64,000 bases of DNA, from IMG/VR virus record IMGVR_UViG_2541047913_000007, one strand, 5' to 3'. Shown here in pieces: positions 10,739 through 42,706 of this stretch. Each line of letters opens with the position of its first letter. Positions within the stretch are counted from its first letter, which is position 1. Source of the stretch: a virus. Taxonomy: Duplodnaviria > Heunggongvirae > Uroviricota > Caudoviricetes. Under the pieces are notes generated by a model. It did no database searches, was not told where the DNA came from, and saw only the letters and a program-made list of their open reading frames with translations. Position numbers and translations under genes: made by a program.

Positions 10739-10915
10739 TTCATACCAACCCACCCCGCCCCACAGAATGCAGGGCAATACTTCGAGTTACCCGGCAGTGG
10801 TCAGGGGTTAAGTAGCCAGCCCGAGGCGTATGAACATGACGGCGGGAACACTTTGTATAACAGCGCAGCAGGTTTTTGTTCCGCTACCCCGGCGTTAAGG
10901 GGAAATGAGGTCAGC

Positions 10916-12470: not shown

Positions 12471-12655
12471 CTTCAGCATTTGCACTGGTGATGACCGTTT
12501 TTCTTATAACGGGTGAGCCACAAAATGTGATTACCGGAATTTATGACAGTAAGTCATCCTGCATTCAGGTAAGGGACGAACAAAAAATCCCCGGTGAATG
12601 CCTCCCGTTAAAAAAAGTATCGCTGTACCTGAATAACGAAACACCGGCTGGATAA
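12467..12655 (+). CDS. Hypothetical small protein with hydrophobic N-terminus (62 aa)
   Basis: MTSAFALVMTVFLITG N-terminal hydrophobic segment; translationally coupled to upstream ORF. Confidence 0.4.
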   Translation: MTSAFALVMTVFLITGEPQNVITGIYDSKSSCIQVRDEQKIPGECLPLKKVSLYLNNETPAG

Positions 12656-12747
12656 CCCGCCAGCCATATTAACGCCATACCAACGGATTAAAAATGCCAG
12701 CAATGGCAGGAATTTGTTCATCCTTAAAATGGTTATGAGGTTTATCA

Positions 12748-15186
12748 ATGAACGCTGATAAAGAAGAAATTGCACTATATTACGAAGCCAAAAATGACAA
12801 AGTCAGAAAACGCCTTGGGATTAAAGGTGGTTTTTACTGGCGCACAGCAAAAAAATTATCGGTTGCAATATCACGCGGTGTTGCTGCAATGGACGATGCC
12901 GGATTTGACGAAGAGGATTTTAAAAAACCCATCCGCGTCCATTTACCCGTTGTGAATGACCTTCCACCGGAAGGTGTGTTTGATACTGAATTCTGCAACC
13001 GATACGAAAAAGGCGGAGAAGATGGTATCACAATGATATTTATAGCGCCCTCCCCCTCAGTTCAGGACAAACCAGCCAGCACTGACAATACCAACGTCAA
13101 TGGCGAAGACATGGCTGAGATTGAGGATAATATGCTCCTGCCGATTTCCGGTCAGGAACTGCCCATTCGCTGGCTTGCGCAACATGGCAGCGAAAAACCG
13201 GTAACGCACGTTTCACGAGAAGAACTTCAGGCATTACATATCGCACGAGCTGAAGAACTACCGGCTGTTACTGGCCTGGCTATTTCCCACAACACAAAGC
13301 TGCTCGACCCGCTGGAGATTCGCGACCTTCACAAATTGGTACGCGACACTGACAAAGTTTTCCCTAATCCCGTTAATTCCAGTCTGGGGTTCATGACTGC
13401 TTTTTTCGAAGCATACCTGGACACTGACTATACCGATCGAGGTCTGCTGACAAAAGAGTGGATGAAAGGAAATCGTGTTTCTCGCATCACCCGCACGGCT
13501 TCCGGTGCAAATGCCGGTGGCGGAAATAAAACCGATCGTAATCCTGACTTAGTACACACTCTCGATACTCTGGATGTGGAGGCTGCAGCAGCCACGCTTC
13601 CGATGGATTTTAATATTTATGAAATTCCCGGGAGCGTTTATCGTCGCGCAAAAGAAATCGTCCTGAAAAAAGAAAGTCCGTTCAGGGAATGGTCCGCAGC
13701 ACTTCGCGCAACCCCTGGTATCCTGGACTATTCCCGCGCAGCTATTTTTGCACTTATCCGAAGCGCCCACCCTGAGTTTTATCACTACCCGGGGCGCCTT
13801 CAGGGGTATATCAATGCCAACCTGACAGAAACTGATCACGAGAATCCCACAGCTGAAACGCTCATGGCTGCCCGGCATACACCGGAAAAAGATATCCTGG
13901 AAGAAATTAACGGCGGACTGGCTGCTGAGTGCAAAACAGAAGAAGAAAAAAATGATGAAGATAACCCGCAACCATCTGGCGCAATGGCAGATGAACAGGC
14001 AACGGCTGAAACAATGGCAGCGGATACAGTTGAACATCATCAGGACCCGCAGCCGCTGGATGACAAGTCACAGGTAAAAGTTACCGCTGACGAAGTAAAC
14101 AAAATTATGCAGGCAGCCAATATCAGCCAGCCTGACGCCGATAAGTTGCTTGCTGCCTCTCGCGGAGAATTTGTTGCAGGGATTAGCGACCCGAATGATC
14201 CGAAATGGGTAAAGGGGATTGAAACCCGCGATTCTGTAAACCAGAACCAGCAAGAATCGGAACAGAACGACCAGAAAGCGGAACAAAACAGCCCAAATGC
14301 GTTACAAAACGAGCCAGAAACGAAACAGCCTGAACCAGTGGCGCAACAGGAAGTGGAAAAAGTCTGCACCGCCTGCGGTCAGACCGGCGGCGGCAACTGC
14401 CCTGATTGTGGCGCGGTGATGGGCGACGCAACATACCAGGAAACATTCGATGAAGAGTATCAGGTTGAAGTTCAGGAAGATGATCCGGAGGAAATGGAAG
14501 GCGCTGAACATCCACACAAGGAGAATGCTGGCAGCGCTCAGGATCACGCCAGCGATAGTGAAACTGGCGAGACGGCAGATCCCTTAATTACGGTGAACGG
14601 TCATCACGTTATCACATCCACCAGCAGGTTGTGGCACCATCTGATGATTGACCTTGAAACCATGGGAAAAAATCCTGATGCCCCGATCATCTCAATAGGT
14701 GCAATATTTTTCGATCCGCAAACCGGAGATATGGGACCGGAATTTAGTAAGACTATCGATCTGGAAACTGCTGGCGGGGTCATTGATCGGGACACCATTA
14801 AATGGTGGCTTAAGCAATCACGCGAAGCGCAATCTGCCATTATGACCGATGAAATCCCGTTAGATGATGCACTGTTACAATTGCGGGAATTTATCGACGA
14901 AAACTCCGGTGAATTTTTTGTTCAGGTCTGGGGAAATGGAGCCAACTTCGACAACACGATTTTGCGCCGTTCATACGAACGGCAGGGGATCCCCTGCCCG
15001 TGGAGTTACTACAACGATCGCGATGTACGCACAATCGTTGAGCTGGGGAAAGCCATAGACTTCGATGCCAGAACTGCTACCCCATTCGAAGGTGAGCGCC
15101 ATAATGCACTTGATGACGCCCGTTATCAGGCAAAATACGTTTCAGCTATCTGGCAAAAACTGATCCCGAGTCAGGCTGATTTTTAA
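12748..15186 (+). CDS. Large early protein with acidic linker, CxxC zinc ribbon and C-terminal DEDDh (DnaQ-like) 3'-5' exonuclease domain
   Basis: 812 aa; [16 protein letters not shown]; exonuclease motifs [33 protein letters not shown]. Confidence 0.7.
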
Positions 15187-15257
15187 TGTTCAACCGTCGT
15201 CGGTTGCAATTGGTATTCTGCAACCGGCGTTCATCTGATGTAAGAGATAAAGAATCG

Positions 15258-15509
15258 ATGAGCGAAGTAATCATGATCGTCTCTCCTGGCAAATGGGTAT
15301 CCGAAGAGCAGTTAATTGCACTTAAAGGAATCAAAAAGGGAACGCTAAAAAAAGCCAGGGAAAAATCGTTTATGGAAGGAAGGGAATATAAGCATGTCGC
15401 TCATGACGGTATGCCATGGGATAACAGTCCATGCTTTTACAACCTGGAAGAAATTGATCGCTGGATTGAGCGCCAGGCATCTGCAAGACCAAGACGTCAT
15501 CTTGCTTGA
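15258..15509 (+). CDS. xis: Excisionase-like protein
   Basis: 83 aa immediately upstream of integrase. Confidence 0.5.
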   Translation: MSEVIMIVSPGKWVSEEQLIALKGIKKGTLKKAREKSFMEGREYKHVAHDGMPWDNSPCFYNLEEIDRWIERQASARPRRHLA

Positions 15510-15528
15510 CTAAAAGCAACACGAACCA

Positions 15529-16824
15529 ATGAGAGAAGCTGAAATGAAATATCCGACAGGCGTGGAAAACCATGGAGGGAAATTACGTATCTGGTTTGTT
15601 TATAAAGGTGTAAGAGTCCGGGAAAATCTTGGGGTTCCTGACACAGCAAAAAACAGACGCATTGCAGGTGAGCTACGCGCCTCTGTTTGTTACGCAATAA
15701 AAACTGGCGCTTTCGACTATGCAAAACAGTTTCCCGCCTCACACAATCTGGAAAAATTTGGTGAGGCCCGACAAGATTTAACCATAAAAGAACTGGCTGA
15801 AAAATTTCTGGCACTGAAAGAAACTGAAGTCGCAAAAACGTCACTCAACACGTACCGTGCCGTCATCAAAAATATTCTGAGCATAATCGGTGAAAAAAAT
15901 CTTGCATCATCGATTAATAAAGAAAAATTGCTGGCAGTACGTAAAGAGTTACTGACTGGATACCAGATCCCCAAAAGTAACTATATTGTTACACAACCAG
16001 GGAGATCGGCTGTTACCGTAAATAATTACATGACAAATCTTTACGCCGTGTTCCAGTTTGGTGTTGATAACGGTTATCTGGCAGACAATCCATTTAAGGG
16101 GATCTCACCATTAAAGGAGTCGAGAACCATCCCGGATCCACTTTCGCGGGAGGAGTTTATCCGCCTTATTGACGCGTGCAGAAATCAGCAAGCCAAAAAT
16201 TTATGGTGTGTTTCCGTTTATACTGGGATTCGCCCTGGTGAACTCTGTGCGCTTGGATGGGAAGATATAGATCTGAAAAATGGAACAATGATAATCAGAA
16301 GAAATCTGGCAAAAGACCGTTTTACAGTACCAAAAACACAGGCGGGAACCAATCGTGTGATTCACCTTATTAAGCCCGCAATCGACGCTCTCCGGAGTCA
16401 GATGGCACTAACGAGACTGAGCAAAGAGCATATCATCGATGTTCACCTCAGAGAATTCGGCAGAACAGAGAAACAAAAATGTACCTTTGTTTTTCAACCT
16501 GAAGTGTCAGCGAAAGTAAAAAATTATGGTGACCATTTTACCGTTGACTCAATAAGGCAGATGTGGGACGCAGCGGTAAAGCGTGCCGGAATCCGCCATC
16601 GCAAATCGTATCAGTCGAGACACACTTATGCCTGCTGGTCGTTAACAGCAGGAGCTAACCCGGCATTCATTGCAAACCAGATGGGCCATGCAGATGCGCA
16701 AATGGTGTTTCAGGTGTACGGGAAATGGATGTCAGAAAATAATAATGCGCAGGTAACGCTGTTAAATACACAGTTAAGCGAGTTTGCCCCAACCATGCCC
16801 CATAACGAAGCAATGAAAAATTAA
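15529..16824 (+). CDS. int: Tyrosine site-specific integrase
   Basis: 431 aa; C-terminal RHTYACW and HAD...MVFQVYGKW catalytic-region motifs; terminal position next to host gene. Confidence 0.85.
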   Translation: MREAEMKYPTGVENHGGKLRIWFVYKGVRVRENLGVPDTAKNRRIAGELRASVCYAIKTGAFDYAKQFPASHNLEKFGEARQDLTIKELAEKFLALKETEVAKTSLNTYRAVIKNILSIIGEKNLASSINKEKLLAVRKELLTGYQIPKSNYIVTQPGRSAVTVNNYMTNLYAVFQFGVDNGYLADNPFKGISPLKESRTIPDPLSREEFIRLIDACRNQQAKNLWCVSVYTGIRPGELCALGWEDIDLKNGTMIIRRNLAKDRFTVPKTQAGTNRVIHLIKPAIDALRSQMALTRLSKEHIIDVHLREFGRTEKQKCTFVFQPEVSAKVKNYGDHFTVDSIRQMWDAAVKRAGIRHRKSYQSRHTYACWSLTAGANPAFIANQMGHADAQMVFQVYGKWMSENNNAQVTLLNTQLSEFAPTMPHNEAMKN

Positions 16825-28994: not shown

Positions 28995-30221
28995 ATGCCG
29001 GTAACTATAACAAAAATCAGAACTGGAGAAGATGTTTTGTCAGCAGCCATTCACCGCATTGAATGGTTGTTTGAAACATTCTCTTCTGTATGTTTATCTT
29101 TTTCTGGCGGTAAAGATTCCACTGTACTTTTCCATCTTGTAGCCGAAGTGGCCTACAGGAAGAAACGTCGTTTTTCTGTATTGTTCATTGACTGGGAAGC
29201 CCAGTATCAATGCACCATTGATCATATACAGAAGATGCGGATGATGTACCAAGATGTAACAGATACCTTTTACTGGGTTGCACTTCCCCTGACGACAGTA
29301 AATGGTGTCTCGCAGTTTCAGCCTGAGTGGATATGCTGGGAGCCCGGTGTAGAGTGGGTTCGACAGCCACCGGAAGATGCTATTACTGATATGGCGTATT
29401 TCCCCTTTTACCGCTACGCCATGACTTTTGAAGAATTTGTCCCAGCTTTTTCTTCCTGGTTCGCAAGTAACCAATGTAGCGTGGCAATACTGACTGGAGT
29501 CCGCGCGGATGAATCTCTTAACAGATTTATGGGACTGGTTTCCCAACGAAAACTGAGATATGCAGATGATAAACCCTGGACCACGGCGTCACCTGAAGGT
29601 TTTTACTACACCATGTATCCGCTGTATGACTGGAAAACCAACGATATCTGGGTATATAACGCTAAAACCTGTGCAATCTACAATCCTCTGTATGATTTGA
29701 TGTACCGTGCAGGCATTCCTCTACGTAATATGCGTGTCTGTGAGCCTTTTGGCCCGGAACAGCGTAAGGGACTATGGCTTTATCATGTTCTGGAGCCAGA
29801 AACTTGGGCACGGATGTGTGAACGAGTATCTGGTGCTGCCAGTGGGGCTCTTTATGCCAATGAAAGCGGGGCCTATTTTGCCCTGCGTAAACGGATGTCA
29901 AAACCATCCCATCATACCTGGCGCAGCTATGCGTTCTTCCTGCTGGACGTAATGCCGGAAAGAACGGCTGAACACTACCGCAACAAGATAGCAGTTTACC
30001 TGCGCTGGTATCAGAACCGGGGATTCCCGGATGATATCCCGGATGAACAGGAAAATGATCTGGGCTGCCGGGATGTTCCCTCCTGGCGACGTATTTGTAA
30101 GACTCTCATAAAGAATGATTTCTGGTGCCGAACGCTCTCCTTCAGCCCCAACAAACCCCGGCACTATGAACGTTACCTGCAGCGTATGAATGAAAGGAGG
30201 AAGGAATGGGGAATTCTGTGA
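28995..30221 (+). CDS. ibrA: IbrA-like PP-loop ATP pyrophosphatase (PAPS reductase family with C-terminal extension)
   Basis: 408 aa; PP-loop SFSGGKDS near N-terminus. Confidence 0.65.
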   Translation: MPVTITKIRTGEDVLSAAIHRIEWLFETFSSVCLSFSGGKDSTVLFHLVAEVAYRKKRRFSVLFIDWEAQYQCTIDHIQKMRMMYQDVTDTFYWVALPLTTVNGVSQFQPEWICWEPGVEWVRQPPEDAITDMAYFPFYRYAMTFEEFVPAFSSWFASNQCSVAILTGVRADESLNRFMGLVSQRKLRYADDKPWTTASPEGFYYTMYPLYDWKTNDIWVYNAKTCAIYNPLYDLMYRAGIPLRNMRVCEPFGPEQRKGLWLYHVLEPETWARMCERVSGAASGALYANESGAYFALRKRMSKPSHHTWRSYAFFLLDVMPERTAEHYRNKIAVYLRWYQNRGFPDDIPDEQENDLGCRDVPSWRRICKTLIKNDFWCRTLSFSPNKPRHYERYLQRMNERRKEWGIL

Positions 30222-30850
30222 CACCAGAGGTGGAGGTGCTGAGCAAGATGATTCGACAGTACTTCAGTCAGGAACAATCTGAAGAGAAAACCATACAGGC
30301 CCTGAACCATCTCCGCTGCGTACTCCATGAGATCAGCCCCTTTGCTCAAGAACCAGTGGACTGTGTGCTGTGGGTAAAAGCGGATGAAATTGTCGCTAAC
30401 GATTATAATCCCAATGTCATGGCCCCAAGCGAAAAAAAATTACTGAAACAATCTCTGGAAAAAGACGGTTTTACTCAACCAATTGTTGTTTCGGAAGAAA
30501 CAAGCCATTACCTGGTGGTGGATGGTTTTCATAGGCAGTTACTAGGTAGAAGAACAGTTACTGGAAAACGCCTGAAAGGCTGGCTACCAGTAACCTGTAT
30601 TAATCCAGACCGAAAGGGACAAACCTCACGTATTGCCGCGACTATCCGACATAACAGAGCCAGGGGGAAACACCAGATAACCTCAATGTCTGATATTGTC
30701 AGAGATCTTTCACGTCTTGGCTGGACTGATGAACGTATCGGAACAGAACTGGGGATGGACCAGGATGAAGTTCTGAGGTTAAAGCAGATTAGCGGGCTAA
30801 CGGAGTTATTTCAGCAGGCAGATTTCAGCCCTGCATGGACTGTTACATAA
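30206..30850 (+). CDS. ibrB: IbrB-like ParB/sulfiredoxin-fold nuclease-domain protein
   Basis: 214 aa; ANDYNPN and VVDGFHR ParB-N-like motifs; 16-nt overlap with ibrA-like. Confidence 0.65.
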   Translation: MGNSVTPEVEVLSKMIRQYFSQEQSEEKTIQALNHLRCVLHEISPFAQEPVDCVLWVKADEIVANDYNPNVMAPSEKKLLKQSLEKDGFTQPIVVSEETSHYLVVDGFHRQLLGRRTVTGKRLKGWLPVTCINPDRKGQTSRIAATIRHNRARGKHQITSMSDIVRDLSRLGWTDERIGTELGMDQDEVLRLKQISGLTELFQQADFSPAWTVT

Positions 30851-30938: not shown

Positions 30939-31463
30939 CTACCTCAGATCACCTAATAATATATCAAGATTATTTTGCGCATTAATGCTATTCGCCATTA
31001 CTGTTGCTGCTTCTGGCAACTTTCCAAGAGCAATAAATATATTCTTAAGGCTGATTGGAATTGATGAACCATGCGGATCGCGCCACTCACCGCAAATTCT
31101 GTGAGTTTCATCACAAAGCCTGAACGCATCCCAACCTCCATATTGACCAAAAATTATGTCCATTGACTCTATTTCTGCGGGCGATAACTCCCCCAGCTCA
31201 TCAACAGAAGAAAATGTACGCCACATTTCAACCTTATGATCCGCTACATCAGATATCCATGATTCCCACGGACTGTACTCGTTTTCACTTCCATCCTTAA
31301 CCAAAGAATATGTCTGCGATAAAACGGGTCCTTTGTTCATAGAGAAATAATGATCACCACTAATGGGAAAACCATACAACTCCATTGCTTTGCGGTCAGA
31401 GAGATACATCAGCTTAATGAAACGCATAGATCCGCCATGTTTTTTCAGCAAATACGCTGCCAT
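30939..31463 (-). CDS. Panacea (DUF4065, SocA-like) domain protein
   Basis: 174 aa; N-terminal MAAYLLKKHGGSMRFIKLMYLSDR typical of DUF4065. Confidence 0.55.
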   Translation of the reverse strand: MAAYLLKKHGGSMRFIKLMYLSDRKAMELYGFPISGDHYFSMNKGPVLSQTYSLVKDGSENEYSPWESWISDVADHKVEMWRTFSSVDELGELSPAEIESMDIIFGQYGGWDAFRLCDETHRICGEWRDPHGSSIPISLKNIFIALGKLPEAATVMANSINAQNNLDILLGDLR

Positions 31464-31613: not shown

Positions 31614-34600
31614 TTAATCCACTCCCACTTTTTTGTTGTACTCGCGGTTAAAGCGATCCACGGCAACCTTCATATCCCGCTCTACCGATTTCACCATCGC
31701 CGCCTGCTGCGCCAGACTGAGAGAACTGTCGGCATAAATGGCATCGCGCTGTTTGCGCAAATCCTTCAGTCTCTTCCGGGTATCCTGCATAAGCCCGTTC
31801 ATCAACAATTTTCCGTTGTTCTCGTCAATGAACGCCGTTCTTTCTGCACCGGTCAGACTCTTCAGCTCTGCGTGATACTGCGCAACCTCTGTCATCCGGT
31901 CGTACATCTTCTGCTGGTCTGCATACGGCATCACCTCACCCGAAATTTTCCCCAGGAAGGGCACCTGCTGCTCCGGTATATCAATACCGTTCAGCGATTT
32001 CACCGCCGCATCTGTGGTTTTGGAAATGAAGCGCCCTGTCCCTCCGGAGATATAGTCAATCCAGAATTTCAGCGATTCCGGTGTGATATCCACCGCGCCG
32101 GGACGATACTGGCTGCCACCTGAGAACGCATTCAGCCAGGATGCAAACGCCTTGTACGCCTCAGGCGTTGAACGTCTGCCCAGTTGGCTGTCCGGTTTCG
32201 GTGTGCCAAATGGCATGTTCTCCTGGTAAATCTGCGCCCCCATGAAGTTTTCATTCATGGCAAGGTTCGCAAACGGACGCAGAATGGTCGGCGCTGCATT
32301 TTTCAGCAATGCCCCGGACAGTGTTTCCGACGTTTCACTGCCCACAGGACTGAATGCCCCCAGGATACCACCGACAACATTACCGGCAGCACGTGAAGCA
32401 GTCAGGTCGCCCGCTGCCACACCTTCAGCAGTATGCCCGAGCAGGAAGAAAACGTTGTACCCGTAAGGCAGAGGAATACTCCAGTACTCTCCGGCCTTGC
32501 CCCCGAACACCGATTTCATAATGACGAGGTTACGCTCTTTCACATGAGACGGCACCTTGTCATACCAGTTAACCCCGTCATCATCCTCCCCCGCAACACT
32601 GCGGTTAAGCGAGCCAAGCAGATAACCCGCTCCCACAGCTGCAAGCGCGATTTTCTGCGGTACATTGAGATTCTTCCAGCGAAGGCGCTCCGGTAACGGC
32701 CCGTCGCCATTAAGATGTCCGAGCGTTCTCACCAGGTTTGCGGTCCCCTGAATGCTGGCGTTGGCAAACATATACAGCGAGTTCATCAGCGCTCCCTGCT
32801 CACCACGACGGTTAAAGTTCACCGTCATGTTTTTGGCAAGAGATGCCGCCTGCTGGCGTGACAAACCGGCATCACGGGCGTGTTTATAGGCAGAAAGACG
32901 CAGAGCGTTTTCAACCGCGCCGTTGGCATCCTCGACCAGGTTCAGGAACGAATGCCATGCACCGATACTCTGGCCTTTCCATCCTCCCTTCGCCAGCGAT
33001 ACAAGGCGATCCATTTCCTTCTGCTGGCCTTCAAGGTCACCCATGTTAAACCAGCCGGTTTTACCTCCATCCTCAACAAACTCTTTCCACACCTTCTGCC
33101 ACTGCGCACCGTTGCCCGTGAGGGTTTTACCACGCAGACTGGCGTATACGGCAGACATGGCAGACCGGCTGTCTTTCACCACAGCCAGGGCGGATAAGTT
33201 ATCCAGCCCTTTCAGTTTACCGTCGCTCCTTCCCTGCTCAGCCTTCAGGTTCATCACCGCCGTCTGCACGTCACGGATGAAGTTACTGACCAGAAATTCC
33301 GGGTTATACGACGTGTTCACCGTTGCCAGGAAACGGTTAACTTTCCCCAGCGTACGGATTACGGCGTTACTGGTTTCCGGCCCCATGTTCTTCATCGCAC
33401 GCATCAGGCGCGGGTCATGGAGTTTGATGTAGTAAGTTTTGCCGTCCTTTTTGGTGGTGAAGTAGCGATCCGCCATCATTGCCATAGGCACCGGACGTTC
33501 AACAACTTCGCGACGGGTTTCGCCGGTTTCCGGATCAACACGCTCTGCAATCGCCCGCATGGTGTCCGGTTTGTCATCAGTGAATACCTGCCAGTAATCC
33601 TTATCGGGATTATCCTGCACCAGTTTCAGGAAGGCGTTACCCACTTCGTTTTTGCGATTGCGGATCAGCGATTCGCTCAAATCCTGTATCGCCTGAGTGG
33701 AAGGAGACTGTGCGCGGGATGCACGCCCCATGGCCTGCCTGCTTTCACGTCCGCCGATGGTGAAGCCCTTACCTGTACGGGGCAGTGACACCACACCGTC
33801 AACATCCTGACCTTTCAGGGGAACGTAGTAACGGTAGGCGTTCTGCCAGGCATCCACCACACCGCTCTCTTCCAGTCCGGCCTCACGGATAAGCTCACGG
33901 CGACGGGCCAGCATATCGTCAACAATCCCTGCCAGACGGTCATACTGTGCCTGTTTGCCACTGTTACGCACACGCTGCATGATTTCCGCCGCTTCCGCGT
34001 TGGTCATCCCCGAACCGCCGTCCGGCATTTTCGGGTTGATTTTCGCGATATGCGCGTTACGTTCCGGCGCGTGACGGGCGTAGAGGTACTCATCCAGATC
34101 GGCCTGCGCAATTTTGTAGTCCGCCAGTAATTTAGCCAGTGGCTGAACGTAGCGCTCCTTCATCACGTTCAGGTCGTTTTCCGCCTTCCCGTGGAAGAGT
34201 TCTTCCGCCATATAAGCGTTGTTACTGTCGTCTATTTTTCCGCCAGTTTTACGGATATTCTCCTGAACAGCTTTCAGCACCTGGAATTTATCCTGCATCT
34301 GGCGCACAAAACGCGATGCAATTGTCTCTTCCGGTGTCAGACTGCTGGTACGGGAGTAATACGGCCCCTTGCGAATATCTTCAGGATAGAGTATTTTATC
34401 TACAGAGCCGCGATAAGAACGCTCCTCTTTGGGCAATTGGAGCCCACTGTACTGAGGGTTATCGCGGCTTAATTTCTCCTTCCGGTAAAGCGTTAATCCA
34501 GCCATTTCCATACTTTTCAGCTTTTTCCCGTTTTCCGTACCGTAAACAGATGCCACCTTGTTAATTTCCAGACGTTTATCTGTCGCCTTCATATGCACTG

Positions 34601-37600
34601 CCGAGACGACCGGATCACCATTTTTATCCACAGCATCAAGCAGCATCACAACCGCATTTCTTTCTGTCGCGGAACGGTAAATTGCATCCGGATTGTGCAT
34701 CAGTTCCGGAAGTCTCTCGATAACATCCATTGGCACCACATGTTTCACGCCATTGGTAGCCTTCCGCACAGTGTCGCGGGAGATAACCAGCGGCAAATCT
34801 GGTGCGCCAAGGTGGCGCAATACCGGCGGCGTACGCCCGATGTTTGCAGTCATTGCACCAGAACGTAACGACTTCATCATTCTGGCAAGGTCATCACGAT
34901 AACGCTCGCCCTCACCTTCCGGCACTTTGAACGGATCAGGCTTACCGCTACGGGAGTACTGAGACGATGCGCCAGCGCCATCCTCACGCGGCGTGTAACC
35001 TTCCCGCACACGCTGGCCTAACGTGCGAATAGTTTCGCGAACAAGTCTGATATCGTTCAGCTCTGTCGGCTTCAGTAACCCCGTGCGACGCAGTACCCCT
35101 TTGACCAGGGCAACAACACGCTCCCACGCCGCCACAAATTTATTCGGCTGTTTCTCCGCCATATGTGCCAGAAATTCACCTGCCTGCACTTCCGGTGATT
35201 CCTTACCATAAGACGCATCAACCTTACGCCAGGCGTCACGGATGGTGGCGTTATCACTGTCACGGGTTTTCAGTACGGTCTTAATAATCGTCTGATATTC
35301 CGCTGGCGTGACTACATGCTCCATTGCATGGTGAATAATCTCGTGACGTAACTTCTCGCGAACGGTCCGCCCGTCAGGGATGTTATCCGCCACCAGGACA
35401 ATTTCACGTTTATCCGGACGATAGAACGCATGCACCCTGCCGTAACCGTCGAACGATTCACCCGCCAGCGCTTCAGCCTCTTTCTGTGACTTCACCACGC
35501 GGACCTTCAGGTCACTGTCCTTAATGCCACTCATCACGCCACGGGCAACCGCTTCAACCTGCGGGACCGGGCTGCCTTTGGCTTCCGCACTGCGGTTAAC
35601 ATCCGAAATGAGATTGCCTTCAGGTGTGCGGGTCACGCCCTTACGGGAATAAAACGCAACGCCCTTGTCCGTCTCACGGGTTTTCAGCGTACTGAACAGG
35701 TGATCGAATGCATCACGAATACCGCCATCCAGTTCCGCATTCGTCGGATAAGCCCAGGTGTTATCTGTGTTGTGCTCAGGTGCCTTACGGATATTGACCA
35801 GATAATCATTCTCCACGCCAGCCGTACGCGCTTTATCCTGAACATAACGCTCAAAGGCACGCGCCGCCATTTCAACATCCGTTGACCAGTACGGTTTTGA
35901 GCGCACCTCATCGAGAAGCGCTGAACGACGCGGCATGTCACTGCTGTTGATCGCTTTCATCACGCCTTTAAACGCGTCGTAAACCTCCTGACGTACCGGA
36001 TATTCCGCATCAACATATCTGCCGTCTTTAAATACGCGCCCGGCACGCTGTGCTTCCGTCATATAGTCGCCACCTGACGTGATCTTCCCGTCAGTGGAAA
36101 CATCATAACGACCAAAATAATTATCCAGTGAATGGAACCATTCGTGGGCCAGCGCCCCCGGTCCGTTACCTTTTGTCAGGTTGATTGCCACCTCACCCGG
36201 CTCATAGTGTGCCGCCGCCTTACCCTTACCACGGGCACCAAAAGCAAGCCCAAGACGACCGTTCAGAGAAAGCGCTTTTGTCGGCACGTTCAGCACATCA
36301 GCCAGGTCATGCAGCGAGTCATAAGCCCGGTTCAAATCAGCCTGACGACGCGGACCTTCCACATAATTACCAAACTGCACACCACGAAAACCAAACGCAT
36401 CACTGAACTGCTCCGGCGAAACATCCCCCTTGCGGCGTTCTGGTCCGGTACGATCGCGGTTGGTGGCGTTACGCTGCTCCTCACGCGAAATCTCCCGCAT
36501 CTCCTTCACATGACGAACAAGCTCATCACGATGTGAATCAATGTACTTACGCGCATCACTGGCTGACTTAAAGCCACCTCTCACCCGCATTTTGTTTTTG
36601 CCGTAAGCGATAAAAATATCGCCACTACGGGTATTCCGGTAAACGTCAAAGCTGATTTTGTCATCTGGTGACGGTGCTGTTTTTTCATCACCTTTCGCCC
36701 GTGACTTTTCCTCCTGCTCTGCAAACCAGGCTTTCGCCTTTGTCAGTAATTCATCCCTGCTTTCCGAGAAAAAGAGGTTACTCCCCTTATTGTCCTTATT
36801 GCGCAGTGAATAAAGTTTCTGTGGCGGATCGTAACGCTTCCCTCCGGCCGCCTGATACACACCGGATACCACCCGATAAGCAGAAGCCTTGTCCATCTGT
36901 GAAGGTGGCAGCGTGCGTAACAGTTGCCAGGTATCCGCATAACGGGAAGGCATTCTTCCCTCCATCCACTCAGCAAGCCGTCCGGCAGTCACTTTTCCTT
37001 CCAGCATTCCCGCCACGCTTGTGCGGATGCTCTTTACACTCTCCACCCACTTCACCGCATTGAGTTTCGTTTTCGCGGGAATATCACTGCGGTACAGCGC
37101 AATCATTGCCAGTGTGTCAGCGTCGGCCCCTTCGTTCGCCAGTTTTGCATAGTCCGGTTTCGGGAACACTTTGCTCAGCGGCTGCGTGAAATAATCCCTG
37201 TCTTCCAGCGTTTTACCCAGTGTTTCGGCAAGCTGTGCATAACGGTGTTTTGCCGCGCCCTTAATCTCCTCACCAAAGTCTTCAATTTTTGCACCACGCG
37301 CCTGCTGGTGAGTGCTCGGTTTATCTACCGGCACCGGCACCGGCACCGGCACCGGCACCTCAGTATCCGGAACATCGGTTATGGTCTGGCGATTATCCCC
37401 GGTCTGTCTGCGCGCTTCTGCCTGCTGTGCCAGTTCCGGAAGGGAGTCACGAACCATACGAGGGAGTGATTCAGGATGTGGCATATCAACCCCACGCTGT
37501 TCAGGTGCAGGAAGTCCTTCACGCACTGGTGCTGTGGCGTTCTGCTCATCCGGTGATGGCAGACCACGACGAACCGGTTCGCCCTCCAGTATTTCCCCCT

Positions 37601-39995
37601 GGCGACCAGCGGCATTTTCCGGTGCCTGCGCACGTCCTTTCTGGAAACTCTGGCCCTTCACCTCACCGGTTGTGGTAAAACGACCACCACGTCCGGCCTG
37701 ATTTTCATCCGGCGTACGCGCCACTTCTCCTGGTAACGGATATCCCTGTCCGGGATGAATATCGCCGGGAGCGGGAAGGCGTGGACGCTCAGTTAACTCC
37801 TGTGCTGTCGGACCGGCATCACCTTCAGCCATCTGTGAACGTACAAGCTCCTCTGCCGTCGGCGCGTTGCCACGGGCAAGGCGGGCCTGCACTTCTGTAT
37901 CATCCCCCGTGAAACCACGGAATCGCGGGTCACGCATGAACGCGGGCTGCTCCATCGGTTCAGCATCAGCAATACGCTCTCCGTCAGCCAGGGTGTTAAT
38001 GGTCTCCGTTGCCACATCTTCAGAGAACGCAGGATTATCCATTTCAACGGCATACTGATTCTCGCCTTTCTTCACTACGGACGGTTTCAGGCCGGTGGCG
38101 CTGGCATTGCGGAAAACGTCGCTCCCCAGAGCACTTTTTTCATCCGTGAAATAACGGTTGTCCGGACGCACCTTTTCAATGCGTTCTGCTGGTCTGGACG
38201 CACCACTCCCGTTAATTTCAATACGAACTTCATCCGGATCGCGGAACCGCACCGTCGGGTAAATACTCCCGTCGCCATCATCCGCATTTTCCGGCTGTGG
38301 CTGTGCCTCCGGTCTGGCCTCCTGCTGAGGGCGAAGCACATCACGGATAGCCTGTAACTGCTGCTCTTCAGTATCAGTACGCCCTTCCTTCAGGCTGAGT
38401 TTTCGGTATTCCTCAAGCAGTTCAGGGCGCGGCTTCGCCTTCAGCTCATCCATCACCGCCTGTCGCTTCGCCTGTTCATCCAGTTCATTTAACAGCTGGC
38501 TGGCGGCTTCCCGGCGATGAACGGCAGACGTGTCTCCCTCAGGTGCCATATCCGCATCAGCATACTGTTCCAGAAGTTGCTCGCGATTCATGCCCTGCAT
38601 GGATTCGCGATGCTGTGCCACCGGATCAGCCGGTTCGGGTTGCGGGGCTGCTTCACCCTGCTGTACGACTTCAGCCTCACGCATGGCGGTTTCTTCTGCG
38701 GCCTGACGTTTTCCACGATATCCGGCAACCGCACCGAACGGTGCGCCCATCGCTGCACCAAGAGCGGCTCCTTCGATCGTTGCGTCAGCTACCCCCTCCC
38801 ATGGTGATATATCCATTCCGGCAGTCTCACGCAACGTCATATTTTCCTGGTAACGCGAATAGCCGCCCTGCGCCGCATTAATCGTCCCCTGTTCCGTGGC
38901 ATTTCTGACAATGCCGCTTTTAACGGTCTTCGCCGTGCCCCGCATCGCCAGATTAAACAACTGAGCATCGCCCAGTTTTGCCGCCATGGCATTCACAGCC
39001 AGCAATTCAGGATCGGTTGCCAGCTGCGCGCGCACCTCATCGGCAACACGCTCTTTTGCCAGATCCATTTTCTGGCGATCAGTAAGCTGTGCGTGCTGCG
39101 GATCTGCATCAATTGACAAAAACGTCTGCTGAAATTTCGGGGACTTCGCCAGCTCAGAGTAATCCGCGTTAAGAACAGAGTCTGCTGCTGCCATTGCACT
39201 CTGCCCCTGTGCGCTGGCTGAGGAATGGGTGATCAGGCCTGCCTGGAATAAATCCGGCATTTTTTTATCGACAGCTTCTGCTGCCAGTGCGGTAGCTCTT
39301 TCCGGCTGCATCCCTGCCGCAATGTATTTTTTCTCCAGCCCGGCGGTCAGCACTTTTCGCAGAGTGACTTCACCCAGCTTTTTAGTCACACCGCCTGCAA
39401 CCATATCAGGTACAAGGGCACCAATCAGGTTTACGCCCTTCGCCACCCAGACCGCAGAATCATCATATCCTTCAGTCATCGGTGTATTCAGCGCCCGCTG
39501 CGCCCCCGGCGACATCTTGCCAGTCAGCCATTCATCCGAGGCTTTAGCGCCGCCACTGACTGCCTTGCCTGTGACCTTCAGACCTTTACCGACAGTATCA
39601 GTAACCGCATTTTTTCCATCAGGCAGAGTGTCGATGACCTCATCCGCCCCCTTGCTGCCACCGACAAAAATATCCTGAACAGTTGCGACTCCCGGCAGCC
39701 CCATACGGCTGAACTCATTTAAAATACGCGCCCCTGTTTTTACCGGGTTCTGAATCATCGCATCACCGAGTCCACGGGCCATTTCCCCTGCCCCCCGGAC
39801 GGACTGGGCGACACCTTTCCCCATAGTTGGCAATACATCGCCCAGGCTGAACGACGTGCTGTTGTCCTTCCAGCGATTGGGATCGGAGAAAAACGCATCA
39901 TAGCTGTCAGTCTCGCCCGGCTGCTGAATGTTCAGGCTGTTGCGGTTCTGGTTGCCAAATTGCGCTTCAGGGCGCTGTTCATCGGAATAAGCCAT
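31614..39995 (-). CDS. Giant 2793-aa virion-associated/polyvalent-type protein with two HExxH zincin-like motifs and acidic Pro-rich linkers
   Basis: Single uninterrupted ORF; ALAHEWFHSLDNYFG and LRHEIIHHAMEHV; PVPVPVPVPV tract. Confidence 0.75.
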   Translation of the reverse strand: MAYSDEQRPEAQFGNQNRNSLNIQQPGETDSYDAFFSDPNRWKDNSTSFSLGDVLPTMGKGVAQSVRGAGEMARGLGDAMIQNPVKTGARILNEFSRMGLPGVATVQDIFVGGSKGADEVIDTLPDGKNAVTDTVGKGLKVTGKAVSGGAKASDEWLTGKMSPGAQRALNTPMTEGYDDSAVWVAKGVNLIGALVPDMVAGGVTKKLGEVTLRKVLTAGLEKKYIAAGMQPERATALAAEAVDKKMPDLFQAGLITHSSASAQGQSAMAAADSVLNADYSELAKSPKFQQTFLSIDADPQHAQLTDRQKMDLAKERVADEVRAQLATDPELLAVNAMAAKLGDAQLFNLAMRGTAKTVKSGIVRNATEQGTINAAQGGYSRYQENMTLRETAGMDISPWEGVADATIEGAALGAAMGAPFGAVAGYRGKRQAAEETAMREAEVVQQGEAAPQPEPADPVAQHRESMQGMNREQLLEQYADADMAPEGDTSAVHRREAASQLLNELDEQAKRQAVMDELKAKPRPELLEEYRKLSLKEGRTDTEEQQLQAIRDVLRPQQEARPEAQPQPENADDGDGSIYPTVRFRDPDEVRIEINGSGASRPAERIEKVRPDNRYFTDEKSALGSDVFRNASATGLKPSVVKKGENQYAVEMDNPAFSEDVATETINTLADGERIADAEPMEQPAFMRDPRFRGFTGDDTEVQARLARGNAPTAEELVRSQMAEGDAGPTAQELTERPRLPAPGDIHPGQGYPLPGEVARTPDENQAGRGGRFTTTGEVKGQSFQKGRAQAPENAAGRQGEILEGEPVRRGLPSPDEQNATAPVREGLPAPEQRGVDMPHPESLPRMVRDSLPELAQQAEARRQTGDNRQTITDVPDTEVPVPVPVPVPVDKPSTHQQARGAKIEDFGEEIKGAAKHRYAQLAETLGKTLEDRDYFTQPLSKVFPKPDYAKLANEGADADTLAMIALYRSDIPAKTKLNAVKWVESVKSIRTSVAGMLEGKVTAGRLAEWMEGRMPSRYADTWQLLRTLPPSQMDKASAYRVVSGVYQAAGGKRYDPPQKLYSLRNKDNKGSNLFFSESRDELLTKAKAWFAEQEEKSRAKGDEKTAPSPDDKISFDVYRNTRSGDIFIAYGKNKMRVRGGFKSASDARKYIDSHRDELVRHVKEMREISREEQRNATNRDRTGPERRKGDVSPEQFSDAFGFRGVQFGNYVEGPRRQADLNRAYDSLHDLADVLNVPTKALSLNGRLGLAFGARGKGKAAAHYEPGEVAINLTKGNGPGALAHEWFHSLDNYFGRYDVSTDGKITSGGDYMTEAQRAGRVFKDGRYVDAEYPVRQEVYDAFKGVMKAINSSDMPRRSALLDEVRSKPYWSTDVEMAARAFERYVQDKARTAGVENDYLVNIRKAPEHNTDNTWAYPTNAELDGGIRDAFDHLFSTLKTRETDKGVAFYSRKGVTRTPEGNLISDVNRSAEAKGSPVPQVEAVARGVMSGIKDSDLKVRVVKSQKEAEALAGESFDGYGRVHAFYRPDKREIVLVADNIPDGRTVREKLRHEIIHHAMEHVVTPAEYQTIIKTVLKTRDSDNATIRDAWRKVDASYGKESPEVQAGEFLAHMAEKQPNKFVAAWERVVALVKGVLRRTGLLKPTELNDIRLVRETIRTLGQRVREGYTPREDGAGASSQYSRSGKPDPFKVPEGEGERYRDDLARMMKSLRSGAMTANIGRTPPVLRHLGAPDLPLVISRDTVRKATNGVKHVVPMDVIERLPELMHNPDAIYRSATERNAVVMLLDAVDKNGDPVVSAVHMKATDKRLEINKVASVYGTENGKKLKSMEMAGLTLYRKEKLSRDNPQYSGLQLPKEERSYRGSVDKILYPEDIRKGPYYSRTSSLTPEETIASRFVRQMQDKFQVLKAVQENIRKTGGKIDDSNNAYMAEELFHGKAENDLNVMKERYVQPLAKLLADYKIAQADLDEYLYARHAPERNAHIAKINPKMPDGGSGMTNAEAAEIMQRVRNSGKQAQYDRLAGIVDDMLARRRELIREAGLEESGVVDAWQNAYRYYVPLKGQDVDGVVSLPRTGKGFTIGGRESRQAMGRASRAQSPSTQAIQDLSESLIRNRKNEVGNAFLKLVQDNPDKDYWQVFTDDKPDTMRAIAERVDPETGETRREVVERPVPMAMMADRYFTTKKDGKTYYIKLHDPRLMRAMKNMGPETSNAVIRTLGKVNRFLATVNTSYNPEFLVSNFIRDVQTAVMNLKAEQGRSDGKLKGLDNLSALAVVKDSRSAMSAVYASLRGKTLTGNGAQWQKVWKEFVEDGGKTGWFNMGDLEGQQKEMDRLVSLAKGGWKGQSIGAWHSFLNLVEDANGAVENALRLSAYKHARDAGLSRQQAASLAKNMTVNFNRRGEQGALMNSLYMFANASIQGTANLVRTLGHLNGDGPLPERLRWKNLNVPQKIALAAVGAGYLLGSLNRSVAGEDDDGVNWYDKVPSHVKERNLVIMKSVFGGKAGEYWSIPLPYGYNVFFLLGHTAEGVAAGDLTASRAAGNVVGGILGAFSPVGSETSETLSGALLKNAAPTILRPFANLAMNENFMGAQIYQENMPFGTPKPDSQLGRRSTPEAYKAFASWLNAFSGGSQYRPGAVDITPESLKFWIDYISGGTGRFISKTTDAAVKSLNGIDIPEQQVPFLGKISGEVMPYADQQKMYDRMTEVAQYHAELKSLTGAERTAFIDENNGKLLMNGLMQDTRKRLKDLRKQRDAIYADSSLSLAQQAAMVKSVERDMKVAVDRFNREYNKKVGVD
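37327..37356. repeat. Hexanucleotide tandem repeat (ACCGGC)x5 inside giant gene, encodes (PV)5
   Basis: accggcaccggcaccggcaccggcaccggc. Confidence 0.8.
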
Positions 39996-40063
39996 ACAGA
40001 CTCCATAAAAAAACCCGGCACAATGACCGGGTATCAGGAAATAGTATTAACGGGAATGGTGAA

Positions 40064-41329
40064 TTACTGCGCGTAATTCTGTTTCAGACCACGGATAAAC
40101 TCAGATGCAGAGGCCGCACTATCATCTCTGGCCTGTTCCCCCCTGGCCTTTTGAATACGGAGAAAATTCGCATACCCGTTCTCCAGCAATTTCTGATTCT
40201 GAGGCTCCAGCATTTCTGGCTGACGGGAAGCAACTTCTCTGGCGAATGCCTGCTTATCCGGATCATCACCCGCCCAACTGGTAATCCCTTGTTGAATTTT
40301 TTGCTGCTGAATTTTCTGCTGATGTTGCGGTGAACCAGTTGCAGCGTAATACTCATCCACCGCCGCCTGAGCATTCCCGCCGTTCTTGATCGCTTCCGCC
40401 GCTACACTGCTGGCTCCTTCCTGAAGTTTCGCCAGAGAAAGTCCCTGCTGCTTCGGCGTGAAATAGCCGAAATTTTTCGAAATTTCCGCGAATTTACTGC
40501 GATCCCTGACAAGCTCAACAGCCTTATCAACAGGCACCGCCAGCACGGTTTGATCATCAGGATGTGCACTGCCGTATTCTGTTACAGGTTTATGCGCGGT
40601 GGAGCCATCGCTGTATGTGAGATCAAGGCCAATAAGTACGTACCCTTCCTGCTGCGCCGGTACGATACTGCCAATCCTGGCCTCTTTTATCGTCTTTTTC
40701 CCGGTTGAATCGGGCATGCCAATACGCTGTTGCAGTTCCGGGCCAAACACCCCGGAAAGGACATCAAGATTCTCCGGCGTATTAAGTGAAGCGATAGCCC
40801 TGTCTGGCTTGTCATCAAAGATTTTTTGCAGGTTGTTCACGGCCTGACCCGCTTTCGCTACATAGCCATCATTCGCCATCAGCCTCAGCGGATTACCCTC
40901 TGACAACTGGCCGTAAAGACGCATTGCTGCATCCCGATCGCCAGCATCCACAGCCTTTCCAAGCGCCGCCATCACAGGCTGATCGCGCGCCAGCATATCG
41001 TTATACTCAAGCCGTCGCTGGTTGTATTTCTGCATCCGGAGTCGCTGCTGCTCCATACCCAGCGACGCATTCCGGTAATTCTGGTTGGCGTTAAACTCCC
41101 TTTCCTGCAGTGCATAATTACGGTCGTCGACTTTGGCTCTGTAATCAAAGTTCCGCTGATCAACGTCTTTATTATGTTCAAACTGCGACTGTGCAAATTC
41201 AAAATCGCGCTCGTTATTTTTCTGTTGTTGAGCAAGCTGTGCTTCTCGCAAACCAAGTTCCTTACGACGGGTCATTGCCTGGTCAACCGTGCTGAATCCG
41301 GCAAGTAAACCCTGTGCAAATCCGCTCAT
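40064..41329 (-). CDS. Hypothetical virion/internal protein (421 aa, Q/N-rich coiled-coil-like)
   Basis: ORF track; immediately upstream of giant gene. Confidence 0.45.
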   Translation of the reverse strand: MSGFAQGLLAGFSTVDQAMTRRKELGLREAQLAQQQKNNERDFEFAQSQFEHNKDVDQRNFDYRAKVDDRNYALQEREFNANQNYRNASLGMEQQRLRMQKYNQRRLEYNDMLARDQPVMAALGKAVDAGDRDAAMRLYGQLSEGNPLRLMANDGYVAKAGQAVNNLQKIFDDKPDRAIASLNTPENLDVLSGVFGPELQQRIGMPDSTGKKTIKEARIGSIVPAQQEGYVLIGLDLTYSDGSTAHKPVTEYGSAHPDDQTVLAVPVDKAVELVRDRSKFAEISKNFGYFTPKQQGLSLAKLQEGASSVAAEAIKNGGNAQAAVDEYYAATGSPQHQQKIQQQKIQQGITSWAGDDPDKQAFAREVASRQPEMLEPQNQKLLENGYANFLRIQKARGEQARDDSAASASEFIRGLKQNYAQ

Positions 41330-41339
41330 TCACCACTCC

Positions 41340-41591
41340 TTAAAACAAAGAACCAGCAATACCACCTATGACAGCACCAATAGCCGCACCGGGGAGACCA
41401 CCAACAGCAGCGCCCATAGCTGCACCCGTACCAATTCCCGTGCCGATATTCTGTTTGTTCTGCGCTTTCTGTTGCGCCGCCATCTGTTTGTTCGCGGCCT
41501 CAATTTCTTCACGTCGTCTGTCGGCATCACTTATTCCCTGTAATGCCTCACGCCGCGACTGATTCGCAATATCCAGTAAACCGTATCCCAT
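41340..41591 (-). CDS. Small glycine-zipper membrane protein (83 aa)
   Basis: GTGIGTGAAMGAAVGGLPGAAIGAVIGGIAGSLF C-terminus. Confidence 0.45.
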   Translation of the reverse strand: MGYGLLDIANQSRREALQGISDADRRREEIEAANKQMAAQQKAQNKQNIGTGIGTGAAMGAAVGGLPGAAIGAVIGGIAGSLF

Positions 41592-41600
41592 ATTGCCCCC

Positions 41601-42047
41601 TTACGCTGACACCAGTTTTCCGCCAACACTCAGTTGTTGTCTTGCAGGTGCAGAAGCCCCCGTCAGTATGTTCATCTGGCGATCCTGCTCTGCTTCACGG
41701 ATACCATTTTTCGCGCCAGCAATTGCCAGAGCATTACGCAAACCCAGTGTGTTACTGTTGGGATTATCCGGGCGGCTTACCCCGTATCTCGCCATCTGGT
41801 TATCCTGCGCCATCTGCGCTGTACGGAGACTGGAAGTGGCAAGGCCGCCCACCCGGGCAAGCTGTGCATTCATCAGGCTGTTGTTCTCACCAAGGTCAGC
41901 CAGCCTTGCCACGCGGGGCAAATATCTGGTTCGCCAGTCGTCGTATTGCTGGCGTGTCAGCGCGGCGGATGTCTGCCAGTCACCCTGTGGGCGGGCTGCG
42001 CCTGAATAACCAGCCCTTGCGAGAGTTTCGTATTTGCCATACTCCAT
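41601..42047 (-). CDS. Hypothetical phage structural-module protein (148 aa)
   Basis: ORF track, operon context. Confidence 0.4.
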   Translation of the reverse strand: MEYGKYETLARAGYSGAARPQGDWQTSAALTRQQYDDWRTRYLPRVARLADLGENNSLMNAQLARVGGLATSSLRTAQMAQDNQMARYGVSRPDNPNSNTLGLRNALAIAGAKNGIREAEQDRQMNILTGASAPARQQLSVGGKLVSA

Positions 42048-42049
42048 AA

Positions 42050-42706
42050 TTACAGTCTCCAGTTCTGAGCCTGATGCTGAATAGCATTAGCGCCGGTGCC
42101 TGGCGTTTTAGCGCCGCCACCACCTCCGTTACCGCCAGCCTTATGCATCGCGTACGCACCTACAGCTCCCAGACCAGCGCCAACAAGAGAAGCTCGCCCC
42201 TGTTGTTTCGTAAACGCAGCCTGTGCGTCCGATTTAGCTTTTGCCAGACTGCTGTCTGCCAGCGAGTTAAAACTCTGTAACGCATCTGCCTTCTGACCGG
42301 AACCGAGAGCCGCAACATCCTGTAGCCCGGCAATATATTTATCTGCCTGCGATACCTGCCCCCGTGTGGTCGTGTCAATCTGCCCGATCACCTGGTCGCT
42401 TTGATTTGCATCCATTACTGCATTAAAACGACCACTGGATGGGTCAACGCCGGACTGAGCAAGATTACCCGCCAGCTCCCTTCGCGCTTCACCAAACTGT
42501 TTCTGATACCCAAGATTTGTTGTGCCTGCGATATTTTCGTACTGCTGCTCACTGTTAAGGTCATCGACCTTTTTCATGAAGTTATCTTCTGCCGGACGGA
42601 GAATATTTTTGTAATCCTGCCACCCTTTCCAGGCCACCTCTTCCTGTGCTATTTGCGCTGCTGTTGGTTTTACTTTGGTATCACCACCACCTTTACTTCC
42701 GCCCAT
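42050..42706 (-). CDS. Hypothetical phage structural-module protein (218 aa, Gly-rich C-terminus)
   Basis: ORF track, operon context. Confidence 0.45.
   Translation of the reverse strand: MGGSKGGGDTKVKPTAAQIAQEEVAWKGWQDYKNILRPAEDNFMKKVDDLNSEQQYENIAGTTNLGYQKQFGEARRELAGNLAQSGVDPSSGRFNAVMDANQSDQVIGQIDTTTRGQVSQADKYIAGLQDVAALGSGQKADALQSFNSLADSSLAKAKSDAQAAFTKQQGRASLVGAGLGAVGAYAMHKAGGNGGGGGAKTPGTGANAIQHQAQNWRL

Follow-up and report, generated by a model that had tools for sequence, protein, structure and literature searches.

The subject of this analysis is a giant gene located in a 64,000-nucleotide stretch of DNA, the IMG/VR virus record IMGVR_UViG_2541047913_000007 (hereinafter, the window, that is, the entire stretch that was analyzed). 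The window is a piece of the Escherichia coli chromosome in which the rspAB-ynf-ynfE-ynfF genes occupy ~17-27 kb and a PhiR5_2-like prophage (97.8% identity) extends from ~27.2 kb on, after ynfF; the nearest whole-phage relatives of this prophage are PhiR5_2 and GER2. The giant open reading frame (ORF) occupies positions 31614-39995 on the minus strand, starts with an ATG that is preceded, 8 nucleotides upstream, by a GGAG Shine-Dalgarno sequence and, according to the ORF list and the translation, consists of 2793 codons with a single, terminal stop. The probability of 2793 open codons occurring by chance is ~1e-49 (simple arithmetic, given that a GC content of ~55% corresponds to ~3.9% stop codons per random frame). 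The original prediction, made from the nucleotide sequence, was that this gene is a single uninterrupted ORF which follows small virion-type genes and encodes a multidomain polyvalent protein, with at least two zincin-like motifs and toxin or anti-defense domains, that is injected into the cell along with the phage DNA.

The protein is an ortholog of phi24B gp47 (vb_24B_48; 93.4% amino acid identity over the full length), 933W L0134 and Stx2-86 gp35, the last two of which are named 'LPD5 domain-containing protein' in RefSeq; thus, the comparison with the large ORFs of short-tailed Shiga toxin (Stx)-type phages that had been proposed along with the original prediction yields direct counterparts. 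A megablast search identified 186 phage records that cover at least 80% of the giant gene at 92-97% nucleotide identity, all of the Stx type or Traversvirus, including 933W, Stx2-86, phi24B, Sp5-like Stx2a phages and GER2, and PHROG 616 aligns with the protein end to end. Relative to the orthologs from phi24B, 933W and Stx2-86, the gene in the window is an allelic variant with mosaic divergence. In the GenBank record of phi24B (HM208303, 6292-9869), three short antisense ORFs (vb_24B_50c, 51c and 52c) are annotated within the giant gene and are probably spurious. Mapping of the giant protein onto more than 200 homologs with phmmer delineates the module borders, resulting in the following layout:

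31614-39995, minus strand: the giant ORF (residues 1-2793), ortholog of phi24B gp47, 933W L0134 and Stx2-86 gp35
38628-39995, minus strand: N-module (residues 1 to ~456), conserved, ending in an Ala/Gly-rich glycine-zipper-like segment (residues 400-433; 38697-38798)
37314-38627, minus strand: Pro/acid-rich linker (residues 457-894); it includes the (PV)5 tract (residues 881-890) and, at ~650-850, a conserved island
35631-37313, minus strand: predicted LPD5-zincin-LPD1 supermodule (residues 895-1455), the zincin being of the CLCA_X/phage-type metallopeptidase (MPTase) kind, with HEWFHSLD at 1284-1291, the strand-2 His H1263 and a Glu helix with E1375 and E1382
34941-35588, minus strand: second zincin-like domain, HExxxH type (residues ~1470-1685), with HEIIHH at 1551-1556 and conserved E1607 and E1614
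34371-34898, minus strand: PBECR/MuF_C domain, a predicted RNase (residues ~1700-1875), PF18819, with H1752 and S1816
31617-34343, minus strand: C-module (residues ~1885-2793), a ~900-residue constant unit that holds LPD38 (residues 2476-2681; 31953-32570)

The ratio of nonsynonymous to synonymous substitution rates (dN/dS) for the giant ORF is 0.134 in the comparison with phi24B and 0.177 in the comparison with Stx2-86, and is below 0.3 for each module, the HExxxH domain (0.04-0.08) and the C-module (0.08) being the most constrained parts. Therefore, the frame is a maintained coding sequence, with an intact gene that is subject to purifying selection, in full agreement with the predicted uninterrupted ORF. 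The synonymous divergence (dS) along the gene is strongly mosaic, ranging from 0.007 to 0.45 between modules in the comparison with Stx2-86, which indicates recombination within the ORF.

A Pfam search with the whole protein detected four domains, all above the respective cut-offs, namely LPD5 (residues 1051-1200), LPD1 (1361-1440), MuF_C (1750-1841) and LPD38 (2476-2681). All four families were defined from phage polyvalent proteins (Iyer et al. 2017, PMC5512222), so the polyvalent, multidomain nature of the protein holds, and neither of the outcomes that had been named as refuting it, a broken ORF or a repertoire of solely structural tail domains, was observed. Searches in 300-residue windows at E<=10 found nothing beyond the same four matches, apart from a motif-level hint of Peptidase_M76 at the second putative zincin site (E 0.19). 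Two HExxH motifs are present, compared with 0.03 expected from the composition of the protein, but upon re-translation they map to residues 1284-1288 (HEWFH; HEWFHSLD is encoded at 36123-36146) and 1551-1556 (HEIIHH; encoded at 35328-35345) rather than to ~1330 and ~1600, the positions originally given being ~47 too high. The second motif is indeed zincin-like, although the form that is invariant in the family is HExxxH rather than HExxH. The other compositional features are as described, with the (PV)5 tract at residues 881-890 (PVPVPVPVPV, encoded at 37326-37355, as re-translated) and acidic Pro-rich linkers at ~440-895, where the content of Pro reaches 17% and that of Asp plus Glu 23% per 100 residues.

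The NCBIfam profile CLCA_X (NF041907) matches residues 1182-1437 with an E-value of 1.7e-44, spanning the gap between LPD5 and LPD1; judging by this match, the first zincin is related to the CLCA_X family without being a curated member. CLCA_X/CLCA_N are zincin metalloproteases (Lenart et al. 2013, PMC3650047) with the same arrangement of HExxH followed by a conserved Asp; in the present case, the domain is set between LPD5 and LPD1 within a 2793-residue protein. Among 61 non-redundant homologs, H1263, H1284, E1285, W1286, H1288 and D1291 are conserved in 100%, and E1375 and E1382 in 91%. The phage-type MPTase clade is characterized by a His that ends strand 2 and an Asp three residues past HExxH (Iyer et al. 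2017), and the first motif, with its signature residues, is predicted to belong to exactly this clade. When residues 1440-1745, which include the second zincin-like domain, served as the query of an exhaustive search, 422 representatives were retrieved at E<=1e-3; most of these are giant proteins (2000-6000 residues), and a few are solo proteins of 200-270 residues. In 159 non-redundant copies, H1551 is conserved in 97%, E1552 in 100%, H1556 in 94%, E1607 in 100% and E1614 in 86%; no Pfam model recognizes this domain, even in the solo versions. An HEXXXH MPTase clade has been mentioned for polyvalent proteins (Iyer et al. 2017), and the conservation pattern of the second domain matches it.

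The third central domain scores 66-72 bits with PF18819 (MuF_C), against a cut-off of 27.6, and H1752 (100%) and S1816 (94%) are conserved in 36 non-redundant homologs. MuF_C is a PBECR (barnase/EndoU/colicin-E5/RelE-fold) domain, a predicted RNase and not a peptidase (Iyer et al. 2017), and accounts for the toxin-type domain that was anticipated; the peptidase label that MuF_C received in the 2026 phi24B preprint conflicts with this definition and was not adopted. The AlphaFold2 model of residues 895-1900 has a mean predicted local distance difference test score (pLDDT) of 78 and a predicted template modeling score (pTM) of 0.48, as expected for beads on a string. In this model, each HEx(3-4)H motif lies on a helix that is preceded by a helix and three strands and followed, further along, by a Glu-bearing helix, and S1816 is on the fourth and last strand of a helix-plus-four-strand unit, so that the modeled topologies of the zincin and BECR units agree with the published descriptions. 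The center of the protein thus appears to combine a predicted RNase with two domains that are predicted to be zinc proteases, and all three retain their signature residues. A Salmonella ortholog fragment, named phosphoribosyltransferase in its source, is longer by ~270 residues in the region that separates LPD1 from the HExxxH domain, a case of natural cargo variation.

The ends of the protein are conserved. The N-module is common to ORF21 of Vibrio phage D75 (E 2e-34), and its match to gp07 of Ralstonia phage Heva is weak (E 1.5e-3); a word-indexed search found N-module homologs in E. coli and Salmonella only, at 61% identity or more. The Pfam Gly-zipper matches at the end of this module are weak as well (E 0.02). 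A weak collinear similarity, partly of low complexity, was also observed between the N-module and epsilon15 gp16 (14669-16573), with a score of 17.8 bits compared with a maximum of 7.9 in 500 shuffles; epsilon15 gp16 is encoded between the SLT-bearing gp15 and gp17, a homolog of the IVP-D proteins considered below.

The C-module is always C-terminal, stands alone in proteins of 900-1050 residues and is also found behind other cargo, including methyltransferases, ART-PolyVal, inositol phosphatase and LPD5-LPD1. It is represented in 358 records of isolated phages, namely Stx phages, ~60-kb Vibrio phages, Ralstonia GP4-like phages, Burkholderia JC1, and phages of Bacillus megaterium and Pelagibacter. 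The 3066-residue ORF of Vibrio D75 and the 4545-residue ORF of Ralstonia Heva both end in the C-module and are both last in the virion block. The giant gene is likewise the last virion-block gene, preceded by a 421-residue gene, in the window, Stx2-86, PhiR5_2 and phi24B, and it holds the same last position in metagenomic contigs. The AlphaFold2 model of the C-module is confident (pLDDT 82.8, pTM 0.79), large and mostly helical; fold and PDB searches found no relative of solved structure for it. A natural E. coli prophage allele encodes a protein of 1596 residues in which residues 497-1692 are deleted in frame, with 1-496 and 1693-2793 retained, in an otherwise identical virion-gene context. 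These comparisons show a three-part architecture in which constant N- and C-modules flank a variable, dispensable center. A stand-alone C-module protein of 981 residues is encoded on an Amphritea sp. contig (gene at 10001-12946), in a ~16-kb element with integrase, excisionase, YqaJ and S24-repressor genes; this element carries no recognizable virion genes, is flanked by chromosomal genes, and could represent either the remnant of a prophage or a satellite.

Evidence on the location of the protein comes from phi24B. In a recent preprint (10.64898/2026.04.10.717836), gp47 was found in purified virions and was not seen in the cryo-EM maps of the capsid and the tail, and an encapsidated ejection protein was proposed. 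The spectrum counts were taken from the proteome supplement of that work, which gives slice counts per protein and peptide counts as totals only. In virions purified by a CsCl-type procedure, gp47 has the second-highest spectrum count among the phage proteins; in the batch digest, it is represented by 746 spectra, whereas the portal accounts for 101 and the major capsid protein for 1674. In the gel, the gp47 counts peak in the top four slices (2188, 1686, 1187 and 1260), above the peak of the portal, and the gp47 peptides extend from residue 133 to residue 2701, with similar spectrum totals across regions. It follows from the spread of the peptides over the full length and the signal in the highest-mass slices that the whole of gp47 is packaged, mostly as a very large species. 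The virion location implied by the original prediction is thus matched by the published proteomics of an ortholog that is 93% identical to the protein in the window.

The gene order upstream of the giant ORF in the prophage is Lom followed by ORFs of 133, 218, 148, 83 and 421 residues, and the five ORFs, all on the minus strand, are 87-97% identical to the phi24B proteins vb_24B_43 to vb_24B_47. Homologs of gp48 (the 421-residue protein), gp50 and gp51, 87-95% identical to the phi24B proteins, are among them; in phi24B, these three proteins were also detected in virions, have no assigned place in the structure and are absent from the discussion in the preprint. The giant ORF does, then, follow small virion-type genes. 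The features directly upstream are:

40006-40032, minus strand: terminator-like hairpin (stem-loop 40032-40013) with a 7-bp stem, including 5 G-C pairs, followed by T7, immediately 5' of the start region of the giant ORF (GGAG Shine-Dalgarno sequence, then ATG)
40064-42706, minus strand: four ORFs of 421, 83, 148 and 218 residues, free of Cys, homologs of phi24B gp48, an 83/86-residue 'bacteriocin-like' protein, gp50 and gp51

The hairpin, a strong one, and the T7 run lie between the 421-residue gene and the giant ORF, and if they are functional, full expression of the latter would need antiterminated late transcription.

The giant protein does not contain a single Cys among its 2793 residues, whereas the 21 other minus-strand ORFs of at least 150 residues in the same prophage average 0.92% Cys (P ~6e-12 for the giant protein). 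Moreover, the giant ORF and the four upstream ORFs of 218, 148, 83 and 421 residues (31614-42706, minus strand) jointly have no Cys in 3663 residues. The same avoidance is observed in 98 of the 111 giant relatives and 14 of the 16 C-module proteins; Heva gp07 (4545 residues), Vibrio D75 ORF21 (3066 residues) and T7 gp15 and gp16 have no Cys either. The two T7 proteins are proven ejected proteins. The absence of Cys is consistent with unfolded transit through the tail and the oxidizing periplasm, and it may be usable as a signature of ejected proteins.

By its domain content, the giant protein is classified as a member of the phage-type polyvalent proteins (Iyer et al. 2017, J Bacteriol 199:e00245-17), with which it shares LPD5, LPD1, MuF_C/PBECR and LPD38, the location among late genes and the pair of MPTases, one of the strand-2-His/Asp+3 clade and one of the HExxxH clade; its packaging is derived from the published proteomics of the 93%-identical ortholog. 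That study does not mention Stx phages, 933W, the constant N-cargo-C build or Cys avoidance. Another relevant comparison is with the extended IVP-D family of podoviral internal virion proteins, which host cytoplasm-directed cargo and include the N4 gp50 vRNAP and BPP-1 Bbp10 (Hardies et al. 2016, PMC4819975). Like T7 gp15 and gp16 and the IVP-D proteins, the giant protein is of a large, mostly helical, Cys-free virion-internal type, encoded after the tail genes, with cargo within an ejection-protein chassis, and BPP-1 Bbp10 contains a CLCA_X zincin too. Membership in the T7 gp16/IVP-D family, judged by profile-level similarity to T7 gp16, epsilon15 gp17 or BPP-1 Bbp10, was tested and is not supported: a search among 10 sequences gave E-values of 0.17-0.72, and the folds did not match; the analogy supports a mode of action like that of T7 gp16-type proteins, without family membership.

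P1 DarB is also a giant head-packaged protein, and PHROG 10089 ('DarB-like antirestriction') matches residues 2354-2681 over profile positions 4263-4538, that is, in the LPD38 region only. The same label is attached to giant ORFs of Ralstonia and Burkholderia phages, and the C-terminus of one of these, Heva gp07, is homologous to the C-module. Pfam searches with the whole protein and in 300-residue windows yielded no match for an N6-adenine methyltransferase or a helicase domain. The 'DarB-like antirestriction' annotation is not transferable, given that only the carrier module is common and the methyltransferase and helicase domains of the DarB type were not found.

Several genes flank this system on its 3' side or lie elsewhere in the window. 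An ORF of 174 residues (30939-31463, minus strand), located 150 nucleotides 3' of the giant gene, encodes a SocA/Panacea antitoxin domain (PF13274, E 2.5e-19); the same ORF is present in PhiR5_2 and missing in Stx2-86, where an integrase gene directly follows the giant gene. No same-strand toxin partner for the Panacea-domain ORF was noticed except for the giant ORF with its predicted RNase domain. Just past the giant ORF are ibrA and ibrB (28995-30850, plus strand), with ibrA encoding a phosphoadenosine phosphosulfate (PAPS) reductase-like protein with DUF3440 and weak matches to BrxP and DndC. Hence the layout differs from the Stx2-86 type in that the giant gene is followed by the Panacea-domain ORF and ibrBA and not by the integrase gene. 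In Ralstonia phage Heva, a PAPS-reductase gene (cysH) is located two genes upstream of the giant ORF, which could be either a coincidence or a recurring association. A second prophage-like region, with a lambdoid early region and an integrase, extends over ~8.9-16.9 kb and is 87-90% identical to phages Tritos and vB_EcoS-689R5. No tRNA gene was found in the window.

Taken together, these observations support the overall interpretation offered in the original prediction, and we consider it likely that the giant ORF encodes a capsid-internal polyvalent (pilot or ejection) protein of the 933W/phi24B-type short-tailed prophage next to ynfF in the E. coli chromosome. The protein is probably shot into the cell along with the DNA, the ejection, the catalysis, the targets and any anti-defense role being the parts of this scheme that we infer. 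Under the proposed scenario, the constant modules would mediate incorporation into the head and exit via the portal and the tail, with the protein leaving the head largely unfolded, and would probably help to build a trans-envelope conduit, like T7 gp15 and gp16. Inside the cell, the predicted zincin domains would cut the polyprotein, freeing the cargo, or host proteins, and the predicted RNase domain would attack host or defense RNAs early in infection.

Several results weigh against this scenario. The protein lacks a strongly hydrophobic segment, the maximum 19-residue Kyte-Doolittle average being 1.38, and membrane insertion is therefore a conjecture. The signal of gp47 is mostly in the highest-mass gel slices, which makes processing before packaging unlikely. 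With respect to the domain assignments, the CLCA_X score of 152.1 bits falls short of the curated cut-off (260), and H1752 of the predicted RNase is placed by the AlphaFold2 model in a loop that joins two short helices and is modeled with low confidence. Fold searches with both multi-domain models gave no zincin, BECR-fold or T7 gp15/gp16 match, Foldseek with the 1006-residue model gave nothing at E<=1e-3, and PDB sequence searches with the complete protein and with three profiles (A1, A2 and A3) returned low-complexity or chance matches only; support for the fold assignments therefore comes from sequence motifs, published profile comparisons and the order of the secondary-structure elements.

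The principal alternative, which follows the reading in the phi24B preprint (10.64898/2026.04.10.717836) and which we regard as unlikely, albeit worthy of serious consideration, is that the protein is a purely structural conduit that extends the short tail across the periplasm, with the metallopeptidase digesting peptidoglycan. The large, mostly helical C-module, reminiscent of T7 gp15 and gp16, would fit such a role, and no lysozyme or transglycosylase domain was found in the giant ORF or the five upstream ORFs, which leaves some wall-cutting activity unaccounted for. However, the domain to which the preprint assigns the peptidase, 'MuF-C', is an RNase domain of the BECR fold by the definition of Iyer et al., and the predicted zincins of the giant protein fall in CLCA_X/MPTase clades, whose links are with secreted proteases or the processing of polyproteins and not with murein hydrolases. 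Furthermore, the central cargo varies among relatives, with methyltransferase, ADP-ribosyltransferase, inositol phosphatase and phosphoribosyltransferase domains, and the center is deleted in frame in a natural variant, which suits accessory effectors better than an essential wall-cutting step. The possibility that the protein resides in the head and is not ejected, functioning as an inner-body, scaffold-like or DNA-organizing component whose enzyme-like motifs act in assembly only, for example, in maturation cleavage, seems improbable to us. The abundance of gp47 combined with its invisibility in symmetric reconstructions would be compatible with such a function, and P1 DdrB, which also contains an MPTase, is processed before packaging (PMC5512222). 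Nevertheless, peptides from all regions and the signal in the highest-mass slices argue against removal of segments in maturation, cytoplasm-directed domains (the RNase here, methyltransferase and ADP-ribosyltransferase in relatives) make little sense in a capsid, and Cys avoidance is common to the ejected T7 gp15 and gp16. For the emptied particles of the phi24B preprint, retention of internal density was apparently not reported.

It is highly improbable, in our assessment, that the gene encodes a prophage-expressed accessory (moron, defense or toxin) protein with an adventitious presence in virions. The terminator-like hairpin directly 5' of the start codon and the Panacea/SocA antitoxin-domain ORF directly downstream could be taken to point in this direction; yet the latter is missing in Stx2-86, the second-highest phage spectrum count in purified virions is hard to reconcile with adventitious detection, the gene has the same orientation as the late virion block and closes that block in unrelated hosts, and PADLOC gave no match for the giant protein.

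The finding as such is already known, inasmuch as the class of proteins was described computationally in 2017 and the ortholog was found in virions in 2026. The present analysis adds, incrementally and by computation, the corrected motif assignment, an N-cargo-C build that is linked to a single tail lineage of podoviruses, the avoidance of Cys and a C-module without a structural relative. Returning to the capsid-internal, ejected polyvalent protein as the preferred interpretation, a broader generalization can be entertained, which we offer tentatively and with more doubt than conviction. The giant ORF and the four Cys-free upstream ORFs would constitute a distinct podoviral ejection apparatus, in which the N- and C-modules form a 'chassis' with swappable cytoplasm-directed enzymes, and the family-wide avoidance of Cys would then mark unfolded periplasmic transit. 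The cargo observed in relatives includes predicted zincins, RNase, methyltransferase, ADP-ribosyltransferase, phosphoribosyltransferase and inositol phosphatase domains. The chassis is common to phi24B, Ralstonia GP4-like and Vibrio podophages (with the N-module match of Heva being weak), and Burkholderia JC1 has the C-module. Kinship of the chassis to T7 gp14-16 or epsilon15 gp17 was not detectable, and the P22 injection proteins were not compared.

Within the 933W/phi24B group of short-tailed E. coli phages, which are carriers of Shiga toxin genes, the giant gene is the largest. The constant-ends/variable-middle build points to a natural protein-delivery scaffold. If the protein is ejected with the DNA, the two predicted proteases and the predicted RNase would be at work in a newly infected cell ahead of any other phage enzyme and, for that reason, may influence which strains can be lysogenized.

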